Virus record (IMG/VR): IMGVR_UViG_3300045988_012347
Coordinates: 1 to 5,929 of that record
DNA from: a virus
Length of the DNA: 5,929 nt
Direction: 5' to 3' (one strand)
Shown here: piece after piece, positions 1 to 5,929 of the stretch
How the letters are laid out: every line of letters begins with the position of its first letter
Position numbering within the stretch: the stretch's first letter is position 1
Translations under genes and position numbers: made by a program
Notes under the pieces: generated by a model
Told to the model about the DNA's origin: nothing
Seen by the model: only the letters and a program-made list of their open reading frames with translations
The model's database searches: none

Positions 1-119
1 ATGTTTTTCGTCCGCTTTGCAGTCTGCGTGAAACGTCGCTGGTCGCCACGGCCTGCGCCGCTACGATGTGCCATTGTGTCACCTCCTTTTATCCTTTGTC
101 TGCATTGTATCAAAAAAAC
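1..119. repeat. Terminal direct repeat, left copy (circular-genome assembly overlap)
   Basis: Nt 1-119 match nt 5811-5929 base for base, implying a circular unit of 5810 nt. On the minus strand this copy carries the first 74 nt (1-74) of the small basic ORF whose complete copy is at 5768-5884. It also carries that ORF's SD and the -10 box of promoter P1. Confidence 0.95.
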
Positions 120-132
120 TCCCGGCTGTCAA
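104..132 (-). promoter_or_regulatory. Sigma70/SigA-type promoter P1 for the main (structural/lysis) operon
   Basis: The minus strand reads TTGACA (127-132), a 17-nt spacer, TGa (110-112) and TACAAT (104-109). That is a perfect -35, optimal spacing, an extended -10 TG and a 5/6 -10. It lies about 20 nt upstream of the AAAGGAGGTGA SD and the ATG (74, equivalent to 5884) of the basic ORF. Confidence 0.7.
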
Positions 133-140
133 CCGGGAGT
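112..140 (-). terminator. Rho-independent terminator ending the 60-aa ORF cassette and the genome-length transcript
   Basis: Minus strand: ACTCCCGG-TTGACAG-CCGGGAGT, a perfect 8-bp GC-rich stem (118-125/133-140) with a 7-nt loop. It runs straight into seven T residues (the last stem T plus 112-117). It sits 11 nt downstream of the TAA stop at 151-153. Confidence 0.85.
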
Positions 141-150
141 TTGCTTTTGT

Positions 151-333
151 TTACGCGAAAATTTCCGTTTTGTCGATTCTGTGCAGCTCTACAGAATCGA
201 TGCCTCTCAAGTTTGCAAGCTTACTGCAAAAGTCTCTTGCTTCTTTGGTTTTTAAGCATCTGATTTCATATGTGCTTGTGCAGTCATCATGTTTTGTGAT
301 GACGAGGAACTTGTATTTCTTTTGTTCTGCCAT
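151..333 (-). CDS. Hypothetical 60-aa protein (orphan accessory gene with its own promoter and terminator)
   Basis: Track ORF 151-342 begins at a GTG inside the SD. The real start is most likely ATG 333-331, preceded by AAAGGAAGGTGA with a spacer of about 5-7 nt. Product: MAEQKKYKFLVITKHDDCTSTYEIRCLKTKEARDFCSKLANLRGIDSVELHRIDKTEIFA. It has no recognisable motif and no TM segment. It is flanked by promoter P2 and a strong terminator. Confidence 0.7.
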   Translation of the reverse strand: MAEQKKYKFLVITKHDDCTSTYEIRCLKTKEARDFCSKLANLRGIDSVELHRIDKTEIFA

Positions 334-360
334 TTCTATCACCTTCCTTTTTGTGATTAT

Positions 361-389
361 ATTCTACCATTTTTCATTGAAAAAGTCAA
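361..389 (-). promoter_or_regulatory. Sigma70/SigA-type promoter P2 driving the 60-aa ORF
   Basis: The minus strand reads TTGACT (384-389), a 17-nt spacer, TGg (367-369) and TAGAAT (361-366). An A/T-rich UP-like tract (390-420) lies upstream. The SD starts about 11 nt and the ATG about 28 nt downstream of the -10. Confidence 0.75.
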
Positions 390-429
390 TGTTTTTTTGA
401 AAAAAGTTTAAATAAATCTTGCATTGATG

Positions 430-471
430 GCCGTCCGTTCGGCTCTGGTGAGCCGACGAAGAGAGGACGGC
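430..471 (-). other. Long imperfect hairpin immediately downstream of the VP4 stop codon
   Basis: The outer stem GCCGTCC (430-436)/GGACGGC (465-471) has 7 bp. The inner stem CGTTCGGCTC (437-445)/GAGCCGACG (450-458) has 9 bp with a TGGT loop. There is a 6-nt asymmetric bulge at 459-464. The hairpin begins 13 nt after the TAG at 484-486. No adjacent T-run follows on the minus strand, so this is not a canonical terminator. Confidence 0.5.
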
Positions 472-483
472 GCGACGTTTAGG

Positions 484-1488
484 CTAGATTCCGGTCCGTT
501 CCTTTATTGGCTCACGCCATTTTTGTTTCTGCTTGTCTTTCTCCTTCTGGATTTCGAGGTATGTCGAGTACAATACACTCGTGTTTTGCTCAAGGTTTAC
601 GAGACTTAGCACCGCGTTTCTCCTTCTTTTGGCTCTTACCTCTCTCAGCTCGTCAGAATGGGCCTTGAAATAGCTTTCAGCGTCTTGGTTGGTATCCTTA
701 TCGAGTAGCTTGTCAAAGTACCTCGGTGGCTTTTTCTGCCGCCCTCCAGCGCACGTTATGTTATCGGTTTCAAGTATTTCGTTCATGTGCTCTTTAAGGT
801 ACTTCTCCCCGATGCCTTTTGACATGATTCTAAACTCTGGTTCTCTGCCTTGCATCCAGTATTTTGCATTCTGCTCTGCGCCGATGGCTTTCTTGTTGAC
901 GTACTGCGCTACATACGCGTATGAACCCGGTGCTGCTGGTGAGAAGTCTACAAAGCCTTTTCCCCAGAGGTTTGTTAGCCACTCGCTCTTGAAGTACGAG
1001 TTGCCTTTCTGGTTTTTGTACCACTGTCCATCCTCCGGCTTTAATCCAAAGAAAATTCCGTGATAGTGCGGTCGCTTTGTCCTGTCTCCGTATTCGCCCG
1101 CAATAAAGTACTTTATCGGCTTCTTGTATGCCTTTCTTAGACGTTTTAGAAATAGCTGTACGTCTCTTTTACTTACTGTCTGAGATTGTATACTCTGGTA
1201 GCCTTTTATGATTTCTCCATAAGGTACGTTTTCTTCGTCATAGGTCATCGTTACAAAAATCACGTCTTCCCAGTCTTTTGCTTCAAGCTCGATTCTCGTT
1301 GCCCACTGGTCGGCCATTTGTTTTCTGCAATACTCACACTGCCCACAAGGTAATAACGCGAGGCTTCCTTTTTTGACGCCGTCCATGATGGTTATTTCCA
1401 TGCCCTGCTTCTTTAGGTTTCTTAAACTTCCCCACATTCGCGGCTTGTTCAAGTTCATCTGAAAAACATTCGGATTTGTACATGGCAT
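484..1488 (-). CDS. VP4: Rolling-circle replication initiator protein (Microviridae VP4 / gpA-like HUH endonuclease)
   Basis: 334 aa. The N-terminus MPCTNP is typical of gokushovirus VP4. A CxxCxxC cluster (PCGQCEYCR) is present. RCR motif 1 is FVTMTYD. The HUH motif is PHYHGIFFG (H codons at 1066-1068 and 1060-1062). The double-tyrosine motif AYVAQYVNKK (Y codons at 913-915 and 901-903) is nearly identical to the phiX174 gpA active-site segment YVAKYVNKK. Confidence 0.93.
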   Translation of the reverse strand: MPCTNPNVFQMNLNKPRMWGSLRNLKKQGMEITIMDGVKKGSLALLPCGQCEYCRKQMADQWATRIELEAKDWEDVIFVTMTYDEENVPYGEIIKGYQSIQSQTVSKRDVQLFLKRLRKAYKKPIKYFIAGEYGDRTKRPHYHGIFFGLKPEDGQWYKNQKGNSYFKSEWLTNLWGKGFVDFSPAAPGSYAYVAQYVNKKAIGAEQNAKYWMQGREPEFRIMSKGIGEKYLKEHMNEILETDNITCAGGRQKKPPRYFDKLLDKDTNQDAESYFKAHSDELREVRAKRRRNAVLSLVNLEQNTSVLYSTYLEIQKEKDKQKQKWREPIKERTGI

Positions 1489-1540
1489 ATTATCTGGCCC
1501 AAGCTTACTTGTCTATCTTGGGCCAGTTGACACCTCCTTT
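1489..1540 (-). promoter_or_regulatory. VP4 translation-initiation region: strong SD separated from the AUG by a perfect 10-bp hairpin
   Basis: Minus strand: AAAGGAGGTG (1531-1540) TCAA [CTGGCCCAAG-13 nt loop-CTTGGGCCAG] (1494-1526) ATAAT ATG (1488). The linear SD-AUG distance is 42 nt, or 9 nt if the helix is closed. An in-frame TAG inside the loop rules out an upstream start. Confidence 0.6.
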
Positions 1541-1550
1541 CACTCTAAGT

Positions 1551-1738
1551 TGCGTGTGCGTGCGTGTTTCACGCGCGCGCGCGCAGATGCTGTTTACCTT
1601 AGCTTCGTCTCCCCAGCGACAGCCCCCGCGCTAGGGGGCGCCGTCGCAAGGGGGCCGCAAACTTGTTTTGCGGCCCCTGTTTCTACAGAGCTTTTTTGTT
1701 CTGATACTCTTCTTTTGGTTCCCCTGTGCTGGGGAACC
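1551..1738. other. GC-rich cluster of four stable hairpins in the large noncoding region (candidate ssDNA origin, packaging element or structured RNA)
   Basis: H1 (1551-1585) pairs two alternating Pu/Py tracts, (TG/CG)n and (CG)6, into 16 pairs including 3 T.G, with a TTT loop. H2 (1616-1647) is GCGAC..GCCCCC-GCGCTA-GGGGGC..GTCGC. H3 (1651-1677) is GGGGCCGCAAA/TTTGCGGCCCC, 11 bp with a 5-nt loop. H4 (1717-1738) is GGTTCCCC/GGGGAACC, 8 bp with a 6-nt loop. A 9-mer ACCTTAGCT is repeated at 1596-1604 and 1736-1744. No ORF with an SD is present. Confidence 0.6.
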
Positions 1739-1815
1739 TTAGCTCTGCGCGGAAGGGTTTTGTTTTGCTCTACTTGCTTTATTATATAACTTGTTGTAGT
1801 CGTAGTAGTAGTAGC

Positions 1816-1980
1816 GTGGAAACTGTTGAAAACACTAAATTATAGCGTTGATACGCATAATTATCGCCCCTTTTTCTGTTGAAAGTTTTGTTGAAAACTT
1901 GTTTAAATGTTGAAAACTTGTTTTTGTCTTCAACTATGGTTGTTTTTCCTGTTGAAAACTCTGTGGAGAATGTTGAAAAC
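1816..1980. repeat. Iteron-like array of the 10-mer TGTTGAAAAC
   Basis: Perfect copies lie at 1824-1833, 1889-1898, 1908-1917, 1950-1959 and 1971-1980. A variant TGTTGAAAGT lies at 1877-1886. An inverted 8/9 copy (GTCTTCAAC) lies at 1926-1934. Two copies extend to an identical 16-mer TGTTGAAAACTTGTTT (1889-1904, 1908-1923). The outermost copies extend to GTGGA-N3-TGTTGAAAAC (1816-1833, 1963-1980). The array is AT-rich, noncoding and sits between the VP2 stop and the GC-rich hairpins. Confidence 0.85.
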
Positions 1981-2000
1981 TGAAGTTTTCCACAATTTGT

Positions 2001-2846
2001 TTAATTGCCTGTGTAGCCTCTCATTGGGCTTGTGTTCGGCATCAGCGGAACATTTTTCAGGTGGTCGCTCCACTTTCTTGCTCCTTCGTCAACCGTTTTT
2101 CTCACGTTGTTGCCTATTTCTTTGCCTGTGTCTAGGAGTTTGTCTCCGAGTTCGTTGGCCATATAGCTATAGTCTGCCACTTGTTTTGCGCTTGACTGTG
2201 CAAGGCTGCTTGCGGCTTCTTTCCAGCTCTTTGCCGAGTGGTATTGCTTCGCGCTCGTGGCTTTCTTTGCCAGCTCTAAATACCGGTTTGCTAGCTCTGC
2301 CGTGTTGTTGCCATACTCGTACATTGCTGAGACAGACGCTGCTTGTGCGCTCTGCTGGTTATATCTCTGTGTTCCGATACTTGCTGATGCTCCTGACGGT
2401 GTTGCTGTTGCTCCGTTGTTTGCCGCCAGAATTGGATTTATGCCGGCTGCTATCATGTCTTTTACGGTGTCTTGATACGCTGTGCCTCGCATTTCCTTTT
2501 CAAAGGCTCTCTCTGCCGCTGCTTCGGCGCTGTTGTACTTTTTTGCGCTTGCTTGGCTTCCCGCGTTCATGATGTTACTGAGCATCGACGACATAAAGCT
2601 CATCATGTTCGCATTGGTTACGCTTCCCTGATTGCTGTACGTTCCGAAGCCCGTCGGCGTTCCGATTTGCGTAGAACCGATTTGCTGCGGAGCCGTCAGA
2701 CTGCCTGTGGTTGTCTCGTTTCCGTCGTTGTACTCTTGTCCGCCTCTGTCTGTTTTCGTTGCGCTGGAACTGTTTGAATTTGTGATGACATTGCTTAACA
2801 GGCTAAGTCCCTGCATCACAAAAGGCATCCATGATAAAAGACTCAT
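2001..2846 (-). CDS. VP2: Minor capsid / DNA pilot protein (Microviridae VP2)
   Basis: 281 aa. It has a hydrophobic N-terminus, and the rest is Ala/Ser/Gln/Asn/Gly/Thr-rich and low in complexity. It contains the conserved gokushovirus VP2 segment AYQDTVKDMIAAGINPILA (the AG-[LI]-NP-x-L motif). Its position directly after VP1 fits the family gene order. The start is ATG 2846-2844. The SD AAGGAG (2877-2882) lies upstream of the intervening hairpin. Confidence 0.8.
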   Translation of the reverse strand: MSLLSWMPFVMQGLSLLSNVITNSNSSSATKTDRGGQEYNDGNETTTGSLTAPQQIGSTQIGTPTGFGTYSNQGSVTNANMMSFMSSMLSNIMNAGSQASAKKYNSAEAAAERAFEKEMRGTAYQDTVKDMIAAGINPILAANNGATATPSGASASIGTQRYNQQSAQAASVSAMYEYGNNTAELANRYLELAKKATSAKQYHSAKSWKEAASSLAQSSAKQVADYSYMANELGDKLLDTGKEIGNNVRKTVDEGARKWSDHLKNVPLMPNTSPMRGYTGN

Positions 2847-2874
2847 TCAAAAATAGCCGGGACTTTGCCCGGCT
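2847..2874 (-). terminator. Intrinsic terminator/attenuator between VP1 and VP2
   Basis: Minus strand: AGCCGGG-CAAAGT-CCCGGCT, a perfect 7-bp stem (2855-2861/2868-2874) with a 6-nt loop, followed by ATTTTTGA (2847-2854) and then the VP2 ATG. It lies 10 nt after the VP1 TAA stop. Confidence 0.7.
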
Positions 2875-2884
2875 TTCTCCTTTC

Positions 2885-4543
2885 TTAAATTCTTTCGATT
2901 CCCGGAATGCTGTAGATGGGCATTTCCCGGAACCATGTTTCGTTGTACCAGAAGTCACAAAGGAACTGGTGCGCCTTTGCGCTTGTTACCGCAATCGTGC
3001 GGTCAATGTTTTCGCGTCCTTCCTGAATCCACTCCGCCGACAGTGTCGGCAGAGTGTCGTAATCGTCCGCATAGTGCCATGCATCCAGAGACTTTTTGTA
3101 GTTTGAACGCATTTCGCCGGTCACATAGGAAGGTTTGTACCTGTAGTCGGCCCAGCACTCCTGATACCCGAAGATTTCGTCATCTTTTTCCGTACCCTGT
3201 GCGAAGATTTCGCGGTTATATACCGGCTGTTCTCCGAGTGCCGCTAGCCGCGGGTCGTAGTATGTGAATCTTCCTTTTCGCGTCCATTTGGTTGTGAGTC
3301 CCTGCTGGTAGCTGTGCTCCACTCGTACCACTGCCAGACCGATGATATACCCGTACTCAGTTGCCGCGTAGTCCACCATCTGTTTGCTACAGGTCGTCAG
3401 ACTGTATGCCGCCGTGTTGCCCAGTGCCTGACCGGTCTGTTCGTCCGTCTGGCTTGTCTGGATGACCTGATTGACATTGATAGCGATTCTCTGCCCGCCG
3501 ATGTACTCCGGGATTTGCAGGCGGCTGTCCGGGCTTGTCACTCCCCATGTGCCGGAAAGGAACTCGCGGTAGCGCGTGCCATTTCTGGCATCGGCCTCGA
3601 AGATGTGTTGCAATGCGATGGCCTGTCTCAGGTCGTTGATGGTTATTGCGGTTACGCTGCTGAGGTCTGCCCCCAGGTATGCCGATGCTGAGTTTGTGTC
3701 GTCATTTTCATCTTTTCCAGATACCAGTGTGACACTGTTTTTGTAGTCTTCTCCGTTGTTTCCGCTGTTGTACATCGTCGGGTTGCTGTAATTGGTACTG
3801 ATAAGTTCTATTGTTTGTTTGAACTCTTGGGTTAAGTTTCTGTCGTCGTACATCTTTACTTTTGCAGGGCCGCCCAGCGGCAGGCTGATTTCCTCTGCAT
3901 TTTTCAACGGCGAAGGTAGGCAGGATGTGAAGTAGTCGTGGAACTTACCAGCTCTTGCCGGTTTCATCGCGTACAGCGTTGCTTCGTTGGTGTTGGTCGT
4001 CTTGTCGATGGCGTTTGCGCTTGACGTCTCTTTGCTGGCGTCTGCGTTCGTGCCGCTGTCATCCGACTTTTTGTAGCCCAGCATTAACGGCGCTTCGAGG
4101 TTTTCATCTCGAAACCACTCGTTGTAAATCATCGCATAGGCCCGCGCCGGGAGTGCGTTTACCTTCAGTGCGTTGGTCACTTCGGTCGGCAATCCGAAAT
4201 AGTCGCCAATACTGCCGTTTGCGAGTCCGCTTGTGCCGCCGATTGTGCAGGTTGGAGTGGAATACTCCGTCTTTTCTGCCCAGTAATCGGTGTTGTTCTC
4301 GCCGAACATATTTTCAAAGTGTTCCCACAAGAGACGTGACGGTACAAAGAAAAAGTATGTGTCCATGTAGCAGTTATCCATGATGGGATAGATAGGCGTA
4401 CTCATACGGATAAGGCCGTTCAGCTGTACTCTCGCGGTATCACCCGGGAGCACTTCGTCCATATAGATAGGCACCAACTCGCCTTCGTTGATGGTCGTCA
4501 ACAGCTGGTGTCCTCGGTCAAATTTAGACCGTGGTCTCTGCAT
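2885..4543 (-). CDS. VP1: Major capsid protein (Microviridae VP1 / F-like)
   Basis: 552 aa and the largest ORF. The N-terminal segment SKFDRGHQLLTTINEGELVPIYMDEVLPGDT matches the conserved Microviridae capsid N-terminus (F-D-x-S/G-H..T...G.L.P....EVLPGDT). Length is typical for gokushovirus-like VP1. Confidence 0.95.
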   Translation of the reverse strand: MQRPRSKFDRGHQLLTTINEGELVPIYMDEVLPGDTARVQLNGLIRMSTPIYPIMDNCYMDTYFFFVPSRLLWEHFENMFGENNTDYWAEKTEYSTPTCTIGGTSGLANGSIGDYFGLPTEVTNALKVNALPARAYAMIYNEWFRDENLEAPLMLGYKKSDDSGTNADASKETSSANAIDKTTNTNEATLYAMKPARAGKFHDYFTSCLPSPLKNAEEISLPLGGPAKVKMYDDRNLTQEFKQTIELISTNYSNPTMYNSGNNGEDYKNSVTLVSGKDENDDTNSASAYLGADLSSVTAITINDLRQAIALQHIFEADARNGTRYREFLSGTWGVTSPDSRLQIPEYIGGQRIAINVNQVIQTSQTDEQTGQALGNTAAYSLTTCSKQMVDYAATEYGYIIGLAVVRVEHSYQQGLTTKWTRKGRFTYYDPRLAALGEQPVYNREIFAQGTEKDDEIFGYQECWADYRYKPSYVTGEMRSNYKKSLDAWHYADDYDTLPTLSAEWIQEGRENIDRTIAVTSAKAHQFLCDFWYNETWFREMPIYSIPGIERI

Positions 4544-4568
4544 TCGCGGTACTTGCGCGAAGTGCGAT

Positions 4569-4982
4569 TCACTGTTCCGGTTTATTGTCGTTCACCTCTT
4601 CCTTTTTTTCCTCCTGCTTCGGCGGTTCGGTCTTCTGCTCCTTCTTCAGCTGTTCCAGCGTTTCCGCTGCCGCCTGTGCTTTCTCGTGCATTGTTACCAC
4701 GTCCTTAGGCAGGTTTTCCAACGGCGTCCCCTCGGTGTATACCATGCTCTTTGCCTTGATGCTTATATCGCCAGCTTCCAGCCGTGCGATTGCGCTTGCG
4801 AGGTCGTAGCCCTCACCGGCCCGCTGGATTTTCTCGTATACGTTCTCGGGCGGCTGTTCGATGTACTCGGTTGTGCCGTTCGCCCGCTTCACTGCTTTCC
4901 ACGTCGGTGCCATTTCTGAGCCTGCCTTGTTCGGCACTCTCTCGGTCGGCATCCCGAAGAACTTTACGTTAGGATTTGTCAT
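4569..4982 (-). CDS. VP3: Internal scaffolding protein (Microviridae VP3-like)
   Basis: The track ORF starts at TTG 4988. ATG 4982-4980 is preceded by AAAGGAG with a 7-nt spacer, giving 137 aa (MTNPNVKFF...). The segment NVYEKIQRAGEGYDLASAIARLEAGDISI resembles the gokushovirus VP3 core (Y-E-x-IQ...D-[IL]..I..R...GD). The C-terminal tail is charged. The position immediately upstream of VP1 fits the family order. Confidence 0.7.
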   Translation of the reverse strand: MTNPNVKFFGMPTERVPNKAGSEMAPTWKAVKRANGTTEYIEQPPENVYEKIQRAGEGYDLASAIARLEAGDISIKAKSMVYTEGTPLENLPKDVVTMHEKAQAAAETLEQLKKEQKTEPPKQEEKKEEVNDNKPEQ

Positions 4983-5226
4983 TTCCAAACTCCTTTTTCA
5001 GGTCAACCAGTTTGCACAGCTGTTTCGGCTCTGCCCCGTACATCTCGCCGGTTTCGCTGTTGAACTCGCCCAGCTCTACGAGGCTGATGTCTTCGATTTC
5101 CTGCAACGTGCCTTCGTCTGCCTTCCACTTTGCCGTGCGGATTGCCTGCGCCCGGTTCTGCTGAAGGAACGGATTGCTGTAGCCATTGGTCACGCTGTCA
5201 TGAAAACTGTAAAACGTGTATTTCAT
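4969..5226 (-). CDS. Conserved small Microviridae nonstructural protein (ORF5-like family; function unknown)
   Basis: The track ORF starts at GTG 5235 inside the SD. ATG 5226-5224 follows AAGGTGGA with a 5-nt spacer, giving 85 aa (MKYTFYSFHDSVTNGYSNPFLQQNRAQAIRTAK...ISLVELGEFNSETGEMYG). The pattern [FY]S-x-xD-S/K...PF.....A.R.F ... L.ELGEFD..TGE matches, from memory, a family common in gokushovirus-type genomes. It forms an ATGA start/stop overlap with the peptidase gene and a 14-nt overlap with VP3. Confidence 0.65.
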   Translation of the reverse strand: MKYTFYSFHDSVTNGYSNPFLQQNRAQAIRTAKWKADEGTLQEIEDISLVELGEFNSETGEMYGAEPKQLCKLVDLKKEFGNDKS

Positions 5227-5615
5227 TTTTTCCACCTTGCCTTTTTTTCTCGTGTGTCGATATGTGTAAAGGTCCAGTAGCTCCCGATGCCGTATTTGTT
5301 CTGGTATTTATTTTTCAGGTACTGTTGCACCTTACTCGCCGGAACTCCTTTTACTCGAATATCTGCCGCCGTGCCTTTTGTGTGCTGTGAGTTTTTCACA
5401 CCGCCGATTTTCGCGTTGTATTCCGGTGTCCTGTAGCCACTGGTGATTATTACAGGTGTGTTAAAGTGTTCTCTTACATCTTCCAGCACTTTTACCAGCT
5501 CTGTGTCGATGAGGATTTTGTCACACCTGCCGTCTTTTTGTGCAAATTCTTTGATTCTGAAGTGTGTGCTCACTCGTTGGGCGCCCTGATGAAATAGGCT
5601 GTATTCATTTAGCAC
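5223..5615 (-). CDS. Zinc D-Ala-D-Ala carboxypeptidase-fold cell-wall hydrolase (Peptidase_M15 family, putative endolysin)
   Basis: 130 aa. The start is GTG 5615-5613, with the SD GAGGA 6 nt upstream. Motifs are STHFRIKEF, ITSGYRTPEYN, SQHTKGTAADI (H78 codon 5382-5384, D85 codon 5361-5363) and FTHIDTR (H118 codon 5262-5264). This is the H-x6-D...H zinc triad and the SGYR/SxHxxGxAxD signature of the M15 (VanX/Peptidase_M15_3-like) fold. No signal peptide or TM segment is present. Confidence 0.88.
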   Translation of the reverse strand: MLNEYSLFHQGAQRVSTHFRIKEFAQKDGRCDKILIDTELVKVLEDVREHFNTPVIITSGYRTPEYNAKIGGVKNSQHTKGTAADIRVKGVPASKVQQYLKNKYQNKYGIGSYWTFTHIDTREKKARWKK

Positions 5616-5733
5616 TGTTTTCCTCGCTTTCGTCGTTGTCTGCGTCCTCTGCGTCCTTCACGACTGCATGATAGATTTTATCTACCATCTCCAGAATTTT
5701 CAGCAGAGTGTTCATGGTTTCCTTAAAGTCCAT
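5605..5733 (-). CDS. Hypothetical 42-aa acidic protein
   Basis: The track ORF 5605-5892 (95 aa) starts at a GTG in another gene's SD and runs across the basic ORF in a different frame. The internal ATG 5733-5731 has a strong SD (GAAGGAAGGTGA, about 5-nt spacer). Product: MDFKETMNTLLKILEMVDKIYHAVVKDAEDADNDESEENSAK, a predicted helix followed by an acidic tail. Its stop overlaps the peptidase start by 11 nt. Confidence 0.55.
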   Translation of the reverse strand: MDFKETMNTLLKILEMVDKIYHAVVKDAEDADNDESEENSAK

Positions 5734-5767
5734 TGTGTCACCTTCCTTCTTTGTTCCATGTGGAACA

Positions 5768-5884
5768 TTACAGCCGGATGCCGCCCCGGCTGACCTTCGG
5801 TCGGACGTTGATGTTTTTCGTCCGCTTTGCAGTCTGCGTGAAACGTCGCTGGTCGCCACGGCCTGCGCCGCTACGATGTGCCAT
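5768..5884 (-). CDS. 38-aa highly basic protein, putative DNA-binding/packaging protein (phiX174 J / gokushovirus ORF8 analogue)
   Basis: This ORF is not in the track because it is too short. ATG 5884-5882 is preceded by AAAGGAGGTGA with a 5-nt spacer, and the TAA stop is at 5770-5768. Product: MAHRSGAGRGDQRRFTQTAKRTKNINVRPKVSRGGIRL, with 8 R, 3 K and 1 D. It is the first gene after promoter P1. Its 5' part is duplicated at 1-74 by the terminal overlap. Confidence 0.7.
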   Translation of the reverse strand: MAHRSGAGRGDQRRFTQTAKRTKNINVRPKVSRGGIRL

Positions 5885-5929
5885 TGTGTCACCTCCTTTT
5901 ATCCTTTGTCTGCATTGTATCAAAAAAAC
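5811..5929. repeat. Terminal direct repeat, right copy (circular-genome assembly overlap)
   Basis: Identical to nt 1-119. Confidence 0.95.

Follow-up and report, generated by a model that had tools for sequence, protein, structure and literature searches.

A predicted host-type origin-unwinding cassette with DnaA boxes and DnaA-trios in the intergenic region of gokushovirus genomes

The window analyzed here, the whole 5,929-nucleotide (nt) stretch of IMG/VR virus record IMGVR_UViG_3300045988_012347 (positions 1 to 5,929), is a complete gokushovirus genome displayed as its reverse complement, and its single large intergenic region (1489-2000, 512 nt, from the VP2 stop codon to the VP4 start codon) holds an array of short repeats. 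An earlier reading of the same stretch (the original prediction) had placed this array in a replication-control region upstream of the gene for the replication initiator (Rep, VP4), which is borne out, and had interpreted the repeats as iterons for that protein or as sites for a transcription factor. The segment 1778-1994 is read here, with a probability of roughly 0.7, as a compact copy or mimic of the basal unwinding system (BUS) of a host chromosomal origin (oriC), made up of an AT-rich tract, TAG trios, tandem DnaA boxes, and about eight more boxes. The array sites are best read as predicted DnaA boxes of the TGT[T/G]GAAAA type of gut Oscillospiraceae and Ruminococcus oriCs, because their motif, flanks, tandem arrangement, and adjacent (TAG)n run match host oriCs lying between dnaA and dnaN. 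The phage thereby probably recruits host DnaA to its own genome. The array begins 6 nt past the VP2 stop codon and lies 328 to 506 nt upstream of the VP4 start; all real genes are on the minus strand of the window (open reading frame [ORF] listing and Pfam), so that the array reads GTTTTCAACA on the coding strand.

In the BUS of bacterial oriCs, DnaA boxes guide DnaA onto adjacent DnaA-trios, and the flanking AT-rich DNA opens (PMC8287927, PMC6669920). The trio consensus is 3'-GAT-5', equivalent to 5'-TAG-3', and the published search rules call for a box with ≤2 mismatches to the species-specific or TTATCCACA consensus, a spacer of 0 to 16 bp, ≥3 NAN trios, and tandem boxes, a GC-rich cluster not being obligatory (PMC8287927). 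Complementing the DnaD recognition element reported for Bacillus subtilis gives the trio strand of that species, TAGTAGAAGTAATAGTAG (PMC10201434). The parts of the phage element are as follows.

1778-1789, plus strand: AT-rich tract TTTATTATATAA, 12 of 12 bases A or T, at the position of the DNA-unwinding element of bacterial origins.
1790-1796, plus strand: CTTGTTG, phage specific, located 3' of the AT-rich tract and 5' of the trios; AACTTGTTG when the two preceding A residues are included.
1797-1814, plus strand: DnaA-trio-like run TAG TCG TAG TAG TAG TAG, detected by Tandem Repeats Finder (TRF) with period 3.
1815-1833, plus strand: abutting tandem DnaA-box-like 9-mers, weak CGTGGAAAC (trio proximal) and strong TGTTGAAAA(C) (distal).
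1846-1854, plus strand: degenerate box CGTTGATAC within the small palindrome GCGT-TGAT-ACGC.
1877-1916, plus strand: three boxes, TGTTGAAAG (1877), TGTTGAAAA (1889), and TGTTGAAAA (1908), with degenerate TTGTTTAAA between the last two.
1926-1935, minus strand: additional weak inverted box AGTTGAAGAC, column identity 0.33.
1950-1979, plus strand: box TGTTGAAAA (1950), and after it another two abutting tandem boxes, TGTGGAGAA (1962) and TGTTGAAAA (1971).
1986-1994, minus strand: inverted box, TTTTCCACA on the plus strand, fitting the general DnaA-box consensus TTWTNCACA and forming an 11-bp palindrome with 1971-1981.

Compared with the published rules, box TGTTGAAAA (TTTTCAACA on the other strand) has two mismatches to TTATCCACA, four consecutive TAG trios stand nearest the boxes within 1797-1814, and the strong box at 1824-1832 sits 9 nt from the trios, the weak box at 1815-1823 forming the spacer. 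The tandem boxes are oriented as in host chromosomes L188 and L204. The tract at 1778-1789 is entirely A/T; it is shorter than those of the hosts and is interrupted from the trios by CTTGTTG. The mean A+T content of the 30 nt 5' of the trios ranged from 67 to 83% over phages and hosts (71% in clade A, the window's own clade, and 83% in the hosts). The only trace of a GC cluster in the window is C(G) at 1815-1816, and phage genomes L004, L114, and L078 carry GGGCT or GGGTG there, as the hosts do. The same parts in the same order make up the B. subtilis incC BUS (DnaA-boxes #6/#7, DnaA-trios, AT-rich element, and DnaD recognition element). Shared features are the tandem box pair, the short spacer, at least three TAG trios, the AT-rich tract, and more boxes on the far side; furthermore, the complement of the phage trios automatically yields the TnnT repeats bound by DnaD. 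Unlike a chromosomal BUS, the phage element takes up ~220 nt of a 5.9-kb single-stranded DNA (ssDNA) phage genome, lies between VP2 and VP4 rather than beside dnaA/dnaN, contains the phage-specific CTTGTTG, adjoins a hairpin resembling a rolling-circle nick site, occurs in either orientation, and in the window nearly lacks the GC spacer.

The natural counterparts of the element are the oriCs of Oscillospiraceae L204 and L188, whose box variant matches that of the phage. The pattern TGTTGAAAAC-N1..31-TGTTGAAAAC was scanned in 185,579 bacterial and archaeal species, one genome each, and at least 120 matches were listed, many of them in gut Clostridia. Among the 120 matches listed, 10 were within 1.5 kb of dnaA or dnaN (~0.1 expected): L188, L189, L196, L200, L204, L218, L220, L242, L246, and L276, most of which are Oscillospiraceae, Ruminococcus, or Eubacteriales metagenome-assembled genomes. 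The gene order in L204 and L188 is dnaA, array, dnaN (Pfam). In phage-like orientation, the host origins have an AT-rich tract, (TAG)5, GGGGT/GGGCT, GTTGAAA-NN-GT[TG]GAAAAC, and then boxes both ways. The cores of two hosts, the window, and phage L114 compare as follows.

Host L188: tatatgtt (TAG)5 ggggt GTTGAAAct GTTGAAAAC.
Host L204: atatataa (TAG)5 gggct GTTGAAAca GTGGAAAAC.
Window: tattatataacttgttgtagtcg (TAG)4 c GTGGAAAct GTTGAAAAC.
Phage L114: (TAG)5 gggct GTTGAAAA GTTGAAAAG.

The trio run, the spacer, and the tandem arrangement were not part of the search pattern, yet they match the hosts, and the L114 core is identical to the L204 oriC across 27 nt (TAGTAGTAGTAGTAGGGGCTGTTGAAA). In eight host origin-type regions (seven beside dnaA, plus L264), the top 9-mers were TGTTGAAAA (36 occurrences), GTTGAAAAC (27), and TGTGGAAAA (11), which are also the top 9-mers in both phage clades, and flanking preferences also agree. 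The predicted hosts are therefore Oscillospiraceae and Ruminococcus, Gram-positive Clostridia, with which the encoded M15 cell-wall hydrolase (thick-walled Clostridia) and the Shine-Dalgarno sites of the phage are compatible.

Most of the repeat structure reported in the original prediction was recovered. The five perfect 10-mers TGTTGAAAAC are on the plus strand at 1824, 1889, 1908, 1950, and 1971, the inverted near-copy TGTGGAAAAC (9/10) is on the minus strand at 1985-1994, the 16-mer TGTTGAAAACTTGTTT occurs at 1889 and 1908, the longer end pair GTGGA-N3-TGTTGAAAAC starts at 1816 and 1963 (89% identity), and the terminal palindrome consists of TGTTGAAAACT/AGTTTTCCACA at 1971-1981 and 1984-1994. 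The copy listed there as a 9/10 direct repeat, TGTTGAAAGT at 1877-1886, is in fact 8/10 (8/9 across the 9-mer). Helical phasing applies in part: the perfect copies are 65, 19, 42, and 21 nt apart, and some but not all of these distances are helical multiples. TRF additionally reported an 11-nt period with unit TTGTTGAAAAC in the 1877-1916 box group. With ≤1 mismatch to TGTTGAAAAC, six matches were found (0.43 expected), a number reached in 0 of 200 shuffles. All seven sites of the 9-mer TGTKGAAAR in the 5.9-kb genome fall in 1824-1994, where 0.28 was expected, and the (TAG)4 run is found once in the genome (0.03 expected). The predicted functional unit stretches to the left of the array, to 1778, and takes in the (TAG)4 run.

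GTTGAAAAC clusters were present in all 54 IMG/VR relatives found via VP4 (80 to 95% identity) and in the GenBank relatives, in every case directly upstream of VP4 and in antisense orientation to the genes. A search with intergenic DNA matched 37 gokushovirus records in GenBank, derived from the gut of humans, pigs, monkeys, mink, raccoons, and dogs; conservation across these matches was highest at window positions 1778-1833. A second gokushovirus clade (clade B) was found by a pattern scan of viral contigs and includes KT264792 (L004), L071, L078, and L114. Its VP4 is 33 to 40% identical to that of the window and its VP1 ~41% identical, yet its genomes carry 8 to 10 sites of the TGT[T/G]GAAAA motif. 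In total, the cassette is kept in 61 clade-A and at least 18 clade-B genomes, with three or more TAG trios in most clade-A and all detected clade-B cassettes. In clade B, the cassette is downstream of VP4 and on the coding strand in 16 genomes. In L161 and L063, also of clade B, only the cassette is inverted (~212 to 250 nt; 1542-1753 in L161 and 2072-2283 in L063, compared with 1016-1227 in L071), and the rest of the genome is collinear. The inversion breakpoints fall between a GC-rich CGCGCACGCGCG tract and GCGCACAGCGCTAAAAA; the GC-rich near-palindromic tracts CGCGCACGCGCG and GCGCACAGCGC at the breakpoints may mediate the inversion.

Across 59 distinct clade-A cassettes, column identity (identity to the window base) was 0.98 for CTTGTTG, 0.89 for the trios, 0.84 for the boxes, and 0.55 for the spacers; purifying selection is concentrated on trios and boxes while spacers drift. 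CTTGTTG, where conservation within the cassette peaks, is shared by the two phage clades, is missing from the host oriCs compared, and resembles the ACTTG motif of the hairpin loop described below. The degenerate box at 1846-1854 has a column identity of 0.82 in clade A, and clade B has similar ACGTT..ACGT palindromes there; the mean for box columns of the three-box group at 1877-1916 is 0.84. The poorly conserved inverted box at 1926-1935 is probably not functional. Architecture, identity with host oriC, conservation, and independence from VP4 sequence and from orientation were thus each observed across the genomes compared.

These comparisons bear directly on the iteron reading, in which VP4 would bind the repeats to find the double-strand origin, as in circular Rep-encoding ssDNA (CRESS-DNA) viruses and many rolling-circle plasmids. 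The likeness to those systems is real: short direct repeats, a stem-loop origin, and an HUH Rep lie in one region, and the repeats adjoin the Rep gene and share its intergenic region with a conserved nick-site-like hairpin. The array was kept in relatives, but the repeat sequence did not co-vary with VP4, and the motif thus fails the iteron test proposed in the original prediction. The same TGT[T/G]GAAAA is found with VP4 proteins only 33 to 40% identical and is identical to host oriC boxes, whereas the side of VP4 and the orientation of the cassette vary. The distance to the stem-loop is not fixed either, ranging from ~35 to ~290 nt on either side, with inversion in L161 and L063. Hairpins lacking an array are, moreover, common: in a survey of 61 microvirus contigs carrying TACTTGAT-N8..22-GGTGACA, 47 had the hairpin unit on the coding strand, and 0 of these 47 had a BUS cassette. 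Against PLSDB, a "distant" blastn search with the array as query was negative, and no plasmid iteron relative was thus found. Rep iterons are accordingly considered very improbable. The alternative offered in the original prediction, a cluster of sites for a host or phage factor controlling VP4, stands in so far as sites for a host DNA-binding protein are the best reading; a dedicated VP4 operator does not, because the array sits on either side of VP4. Bacteroidetes promoter motifs and the Spo0A "0A box" (TGTCGAA) were also considered and rejected, as their invariant positions do not fit TGT[T/G]GAAAA, and Shine-Dalgarno sites are present.

A stem-loop of the kind that the original prediction associated with iterons does occur in the region; it is conserved, spans 1494-1526, and has a phiX174-like ACTTG in its loop. 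With its flank and its counterparts elsewhere, it is located as follows.

1494-1534, plus (noncoding) strand, just before the VP4 start codon: origin-like hairpin with stem CTGGCCCAAG, loop CTTACTTGTCTAT, stem CTTGGGCCAG, and 3' flank TTGACACC.
Homologous hairpin units: 2904-2945 in L295 (Chp2), 512-548 in L296, 3522-3560 in L377, and ~3607-3650 (minus strand) in L004.

The unit follows the pattern stem, loop TACTTG(A/T)T, stem, (G/T)TGAYA(CC). Its stems show compensatory changes across genomes, its loop and flank are conserved, and it keeps one orientation with respect to the genes in 60 of 61 clade-A and 16 of 18 clade-B genomes. The loop is TACTTGTC in the window and TACTTGATA in clade B, L377, and many other microviruses. 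The pC194-type nick site is CTTG^ATA; at this core, the window loop has ACTTGTCTA, and clade B, L377, and the 61 surveyed microviruses have TACTTGAT. In phiX174, the origin annotated at 4306 has a sequence similar to that of the loop, CAACTTG^ATATT (CAACTTG^ATATTAATAAC; shared core, ACTTGAT). Unlike that origin, the phage motif lies in a hairpin loop that is intergenic, outside the Rep gene, and on the noncoding strand, and the resemblance concerns the hairpin, not the array. The best reading of 1494-1534 is a phiX174-like predicted nick-site hairpin beside the cassette.

The high number of boxes (7 to 10 per genome) would also suit titration of DnaA or regulation instead of the opening of phage DNA. 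As a sink, many replicative forms with ~10 boxes each could drain DnaA and block host initiation; as a sensor, DnaA would act as a transcription factor coupling phage expression to the growth state of the host. Bacteria have datA-type loci and DnaA-regulated promoters, and in clade B the array is closely followed by a near-consensus promoter (TTGACA-N17-TATAAC in L004 and TTGACA-N17-TAAAAT in L071). Titration needs boxes only, however, whereas the trios (0.89), the box-trio spacing, the tandem pair, and the AT-rich tract are kept as in oriC, an exact arrangement whose conservation argues for unwinding rather than titration. The position of the array relative to genes and promoters also differs by clade. 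A role as sink or sensor is thus regarded as unlikely.

The 11-bp palindrome at 1971-1994 suggests a further use of the boxes. In R6K and pBR322, a DnaA-box hairpin forms the "A site" of the ABC primosome; by analogy, box hairpins on the incoming phage strand, in which this palindrome would form a double-stranded box, would bind DnaA and nucleate a primosome for second-strand synthesis. Folding of the intergenic region as ssDNA is strong (z = -7.6), but this stems from the GC-rich block at 1489-1750 and not from the array. A single-strand signal would be strand specific, yet the cassette occurs in both orientations, and inverted sites are few compared with direct ones (57 versus 456 in clade A and 3 versus 161 in clade B, which is thus almost without inverted boxes). 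The inverted box is poorly conserved in clade A, to which the box-containing palindrome is specific. A complementary-strand origin in the array is therefore judged quite improbable. The datA-type loci and the A site resemble the phage element as DnaA-box clusters outside oriC, and the window shares one box-containing palindrome with them; they lack oriC-like trios and an unwinding tract, and the palindrome of the window is not kept in clade B.

The 27-nt identity between one phage core and a host oriC could also mean that the cassette is an inert passenger, a host oriC fragment acquired by recombination and functionless in the phage. This is hardly credible for a cassette held in ~80 genomes of two clades whose proteins are ~40% identical, with selection on boxes and trios while spacers drift, in a family, Microviridae, whose genome size is tightly limited. 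Beyond the motifs, no extended homology to any host origin was found past the 27- to 32-nt core, and recent capture from a host was considered and set aside on the same observation.

Under the preferred reading, an oriC-type unwinding module, host DnaA-ATP would bind the boxes on the double-stranded replicative form, and the DnaA filament would extend onto the TAG strand and melt the neighboring AT-rich DNA. This opening, probably with helicase loading via the host DnaD/DnaB/DnaI pathway, would serve phage replication. One possibility is that theta-type copying of the replicative form begins in this way; another is that ssDNA is exposed, allowing VP4 to nick the neighboring ACTTG hairpin. That the cassette can point either way with respect to the genes is consistent with a role on double-stranded DNA. 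The rolling-circle link is favored by the position of the ACTTG hairpin beside VP4, toward which the AT-rich end is directed in both main clades. The plasmid and phage origins of pSC101, P1, F, RK2, and R6K likewise have DnaA boxes beside their own initiator, with one to few boxes and with Rep iterons that open. The phage element is similar in placing host DnaA sites beside its own initiator system, where they may help opening or helicase loading; it differs in having a complete box-trio-AT module, no Rep iterons, and an HUH nickase as initiator.

Several points weigh against this reading. DnaA binding, unwinding, and the link to VP4 are deduced from sequence comparison. In the window, the GC spacer is down to 1 to 2 bases, the trio-proximal box is weak, and the AT-rich tract is just 12 nt long, with CTTGTTG between it and the trios. 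The cassette of the window is kept ~230 nt from the nick-site-like hairpin by intervening GC-rich hairpins, and in L161 and L063 the AT-rich end is directed away from the hairpin, a reversed geometry indicating that coupling to the nick site need not be geometrically strict. The host assignment derives from motif identity, and taxa outside the at least 120 matches listed may share the box variant. Rolling-circle microviruses are not known to require DnaA, and Chp2, SpV4, and phiMH2K, searched for box clusters with trios, had no such module.

No BUS-type cassette was found in the other surveyed microviruses. A search for a microvirus module with the canonical box TGTGGATAA (TAGTAGTAG-N0..16-TGTGGATAA) gave one microvirus match, in L377, which was dismissed as an isolated chance occurrence of the box within coding sequence; the arrays of L119, L080, and L108 were dismissed as coding or low-complexity repeats. 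Positions 2820-2843 of Chp2 (L295) contain two TGTGCAAAA repeats, 12 nt apart, with the ACTTGAT hairpin ~60 nt to their 3' side. Read on the opposite strand as TTTTGCACA, they agree with the DnaA-box consensus TTWTNCACA, and there are no TAG trios there. Such a minimal arrangement, two DnaA boxes next to the origin hairpin, may predate the full cassette.

Noncoding origin-like modules with an AT-rich tract, TAG repeats, a GC spacer, and tandem boxes were also seen in large viral contigs other than microviruses, namely, L140 (~3450-3650, minus strand), L160 (~8760-8960, minus strand), L325, L367/L315/L299, L381, L344, L310, and L312. L140 and L160 carry the TGTTGAAAA variant and are weak evidence, having been picked up by the motif search itself; the remaining contigs carry canonical TGTGGATAA. 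No dnaA was detected by tblastn at the module loci of these contigs, and the neighboring proteins in L140 and L160 had no Pfam match and no useful BLAST relative. In L160, a single ORF of ≥80 amino acids was found in the 4.3 kb of 6500-10838 under the standard bacterial code, which suggests stop-codon reassignment or a long noncoding region. Mimicry of host origins may be widespread in phages.

Strand composition was compared with the orientation of the hairpin unit, which is on the coding strand in Chp2, SpV4, and L377 and on the noncoding strand in the window clade and clade B. The 14 of 61 surveyed contigs with the unit on the noncoding strand include clade B and four unrelated 4.4- to 4.7-kb genomes (L436, L457, L482, and L501). 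Third-position AT skew of VP1 on the coding strand was -0.86 to +0.05 where the unit was on the coding strand and +0.21 to +0.76 where it was on the noncoding strand, with no overlap. The coding strand of the window is A rich, with skews of +0.29 (VP1), +0.39 (VP4), and +0.50 (VP2). For gene F of phiX174, a control whose packaged strand is known, the skew was -0.72. T-richness thus goes with the strand bearing the hairpin unit. In ssDNA phages, T-richness is expected from deamination of the encapsidated strand. Because the hairpin unit and T-richness are both on the noncoding strand, packaging of that strand is suggested for these phages, which would make them negative sense. No hairpin unit was found in phiMH2K (L294); its coding strand is A rich (third-position skew, +0.33), with CTTGATA on the noncoding strand inside Vp4 at ~4360-4372, and its polarity may deserve reexamination.

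The window is 89% identical to Human gokushovirus KX513864 and 80% identical to Gokushovirus WZ-2015a KT264784. Its genes and the remaining features of the intergenic region are as follows.

484-1488, minus strand: VP4/Rep, an HUH rolling-circle initiator (Pfam PF23343, E = 4e-19; annotated VP4 in KX513864).
2001-2846, minus strand: VP2 (ORF listing; syntenic with the annotated VP2 of KX513864).
2885-4543, minus strand: VP1 capsid (PF02305, E = 4e-147).
4569-4988, minus strand: scaffold-like gene (Pfam).
4969-5235, minus strand: ORF5 (Pfam).
5223-5615, minus strand: peptidase M15 cell-wall hydrolase (PF08291).
1550-1750, no strand assigned: GC-rich hairpin block, with an alternating purine-pyrimidine palindrome and several hairpins.
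1550-1586: the alternating purine-pyrimidine GC-rich palindrome, GCGTGTGCGTGCGTGTTTCACGCGCGCGCGCGC.
1622-1653 and 1601-1617/1728-1744: further hairpins in the GC-rich block.
1651-1677: hairpin GGGGCCGCAA-ACTTGTT-TTGCGGCCCC, with ACTTGTT in the loop.

The GC-rich block is common to the window and clade B via the CGCGCACGCGCG tract, and the whole block is missing in the L003/L019 subclade; the hairpins at 1550-1750 may serve as an origin for the complementary strand or be prone to form Z-DNA. A strong Shine-Dalgarno sequence, AAAGGAGGTG, was observed ~45 nt 5' of the VP4 ATG (1486-1545, minus strand), with the conserved hairpin between them; folding of this hairpin would draw the ribosome-binding site near the start codon and may couple Rep translation to hairpin formation. 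A sigma-70 promoter and terminator scan of the intergenic region gave nothing over shuffle expectation that explained the array. An Rfam search of 1400-2100 returned subthreshold chance matches only, and a known RNA was ruled out as the identity of the element.

Full-text searches found no relevant literature on DnaA boxes, oriC, iterons, or the replication origin of gokushoviruses or Microviridae, nor on DnaA-trios in phages or negative-sense Microviridae. The type of element is known; its occurrence as a conserved, movable cassette in a rolling-circle ssDNA phage appears to be new. Taken jointly, the observations can be assembled into a picture of DnaA-dependent, negative-sense microviruses of Gram-positive Oscillospiraceae, with an oriC-type self-sufficient module, a VP4 that nicks the noncoding-strand ACTTG hairpin, and a packaged noncoding strand. 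This composite is tentative, and the odds that all of its parts hold together are well below even. If it is true, the replicative form would be opened, and perhaps replicated or maintained as a minichromosome or plasmid, by host DnaA; the phage would in this way be coupled to the cell cycle of its host, and persistent carriage would become possible.

Few phages of the human and animal gut are as abundant as gokushoviruses. With the present reading, an anonymous array of repeats becomes a specific mechanism open to testing, the recruitment of DnaA through a copied host-origin unwinding module. It also gives a sequence-based host prediction, Oscillospiraceae and Ruminococcus, that goes beyond the classical host range of Microviridae, and pairing the DnaA-box variants of phages with those of candidate hosts could develop into a generally applicable way of predicting hosts. 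As a natural origin module of ~220 bp, the cassette would be useful for studies of origin opening and for vectors for uncultivated Clostridia. The strand-polarity finding, if confirmed, would overturn the textbook view of all Microviridae as positive sense.

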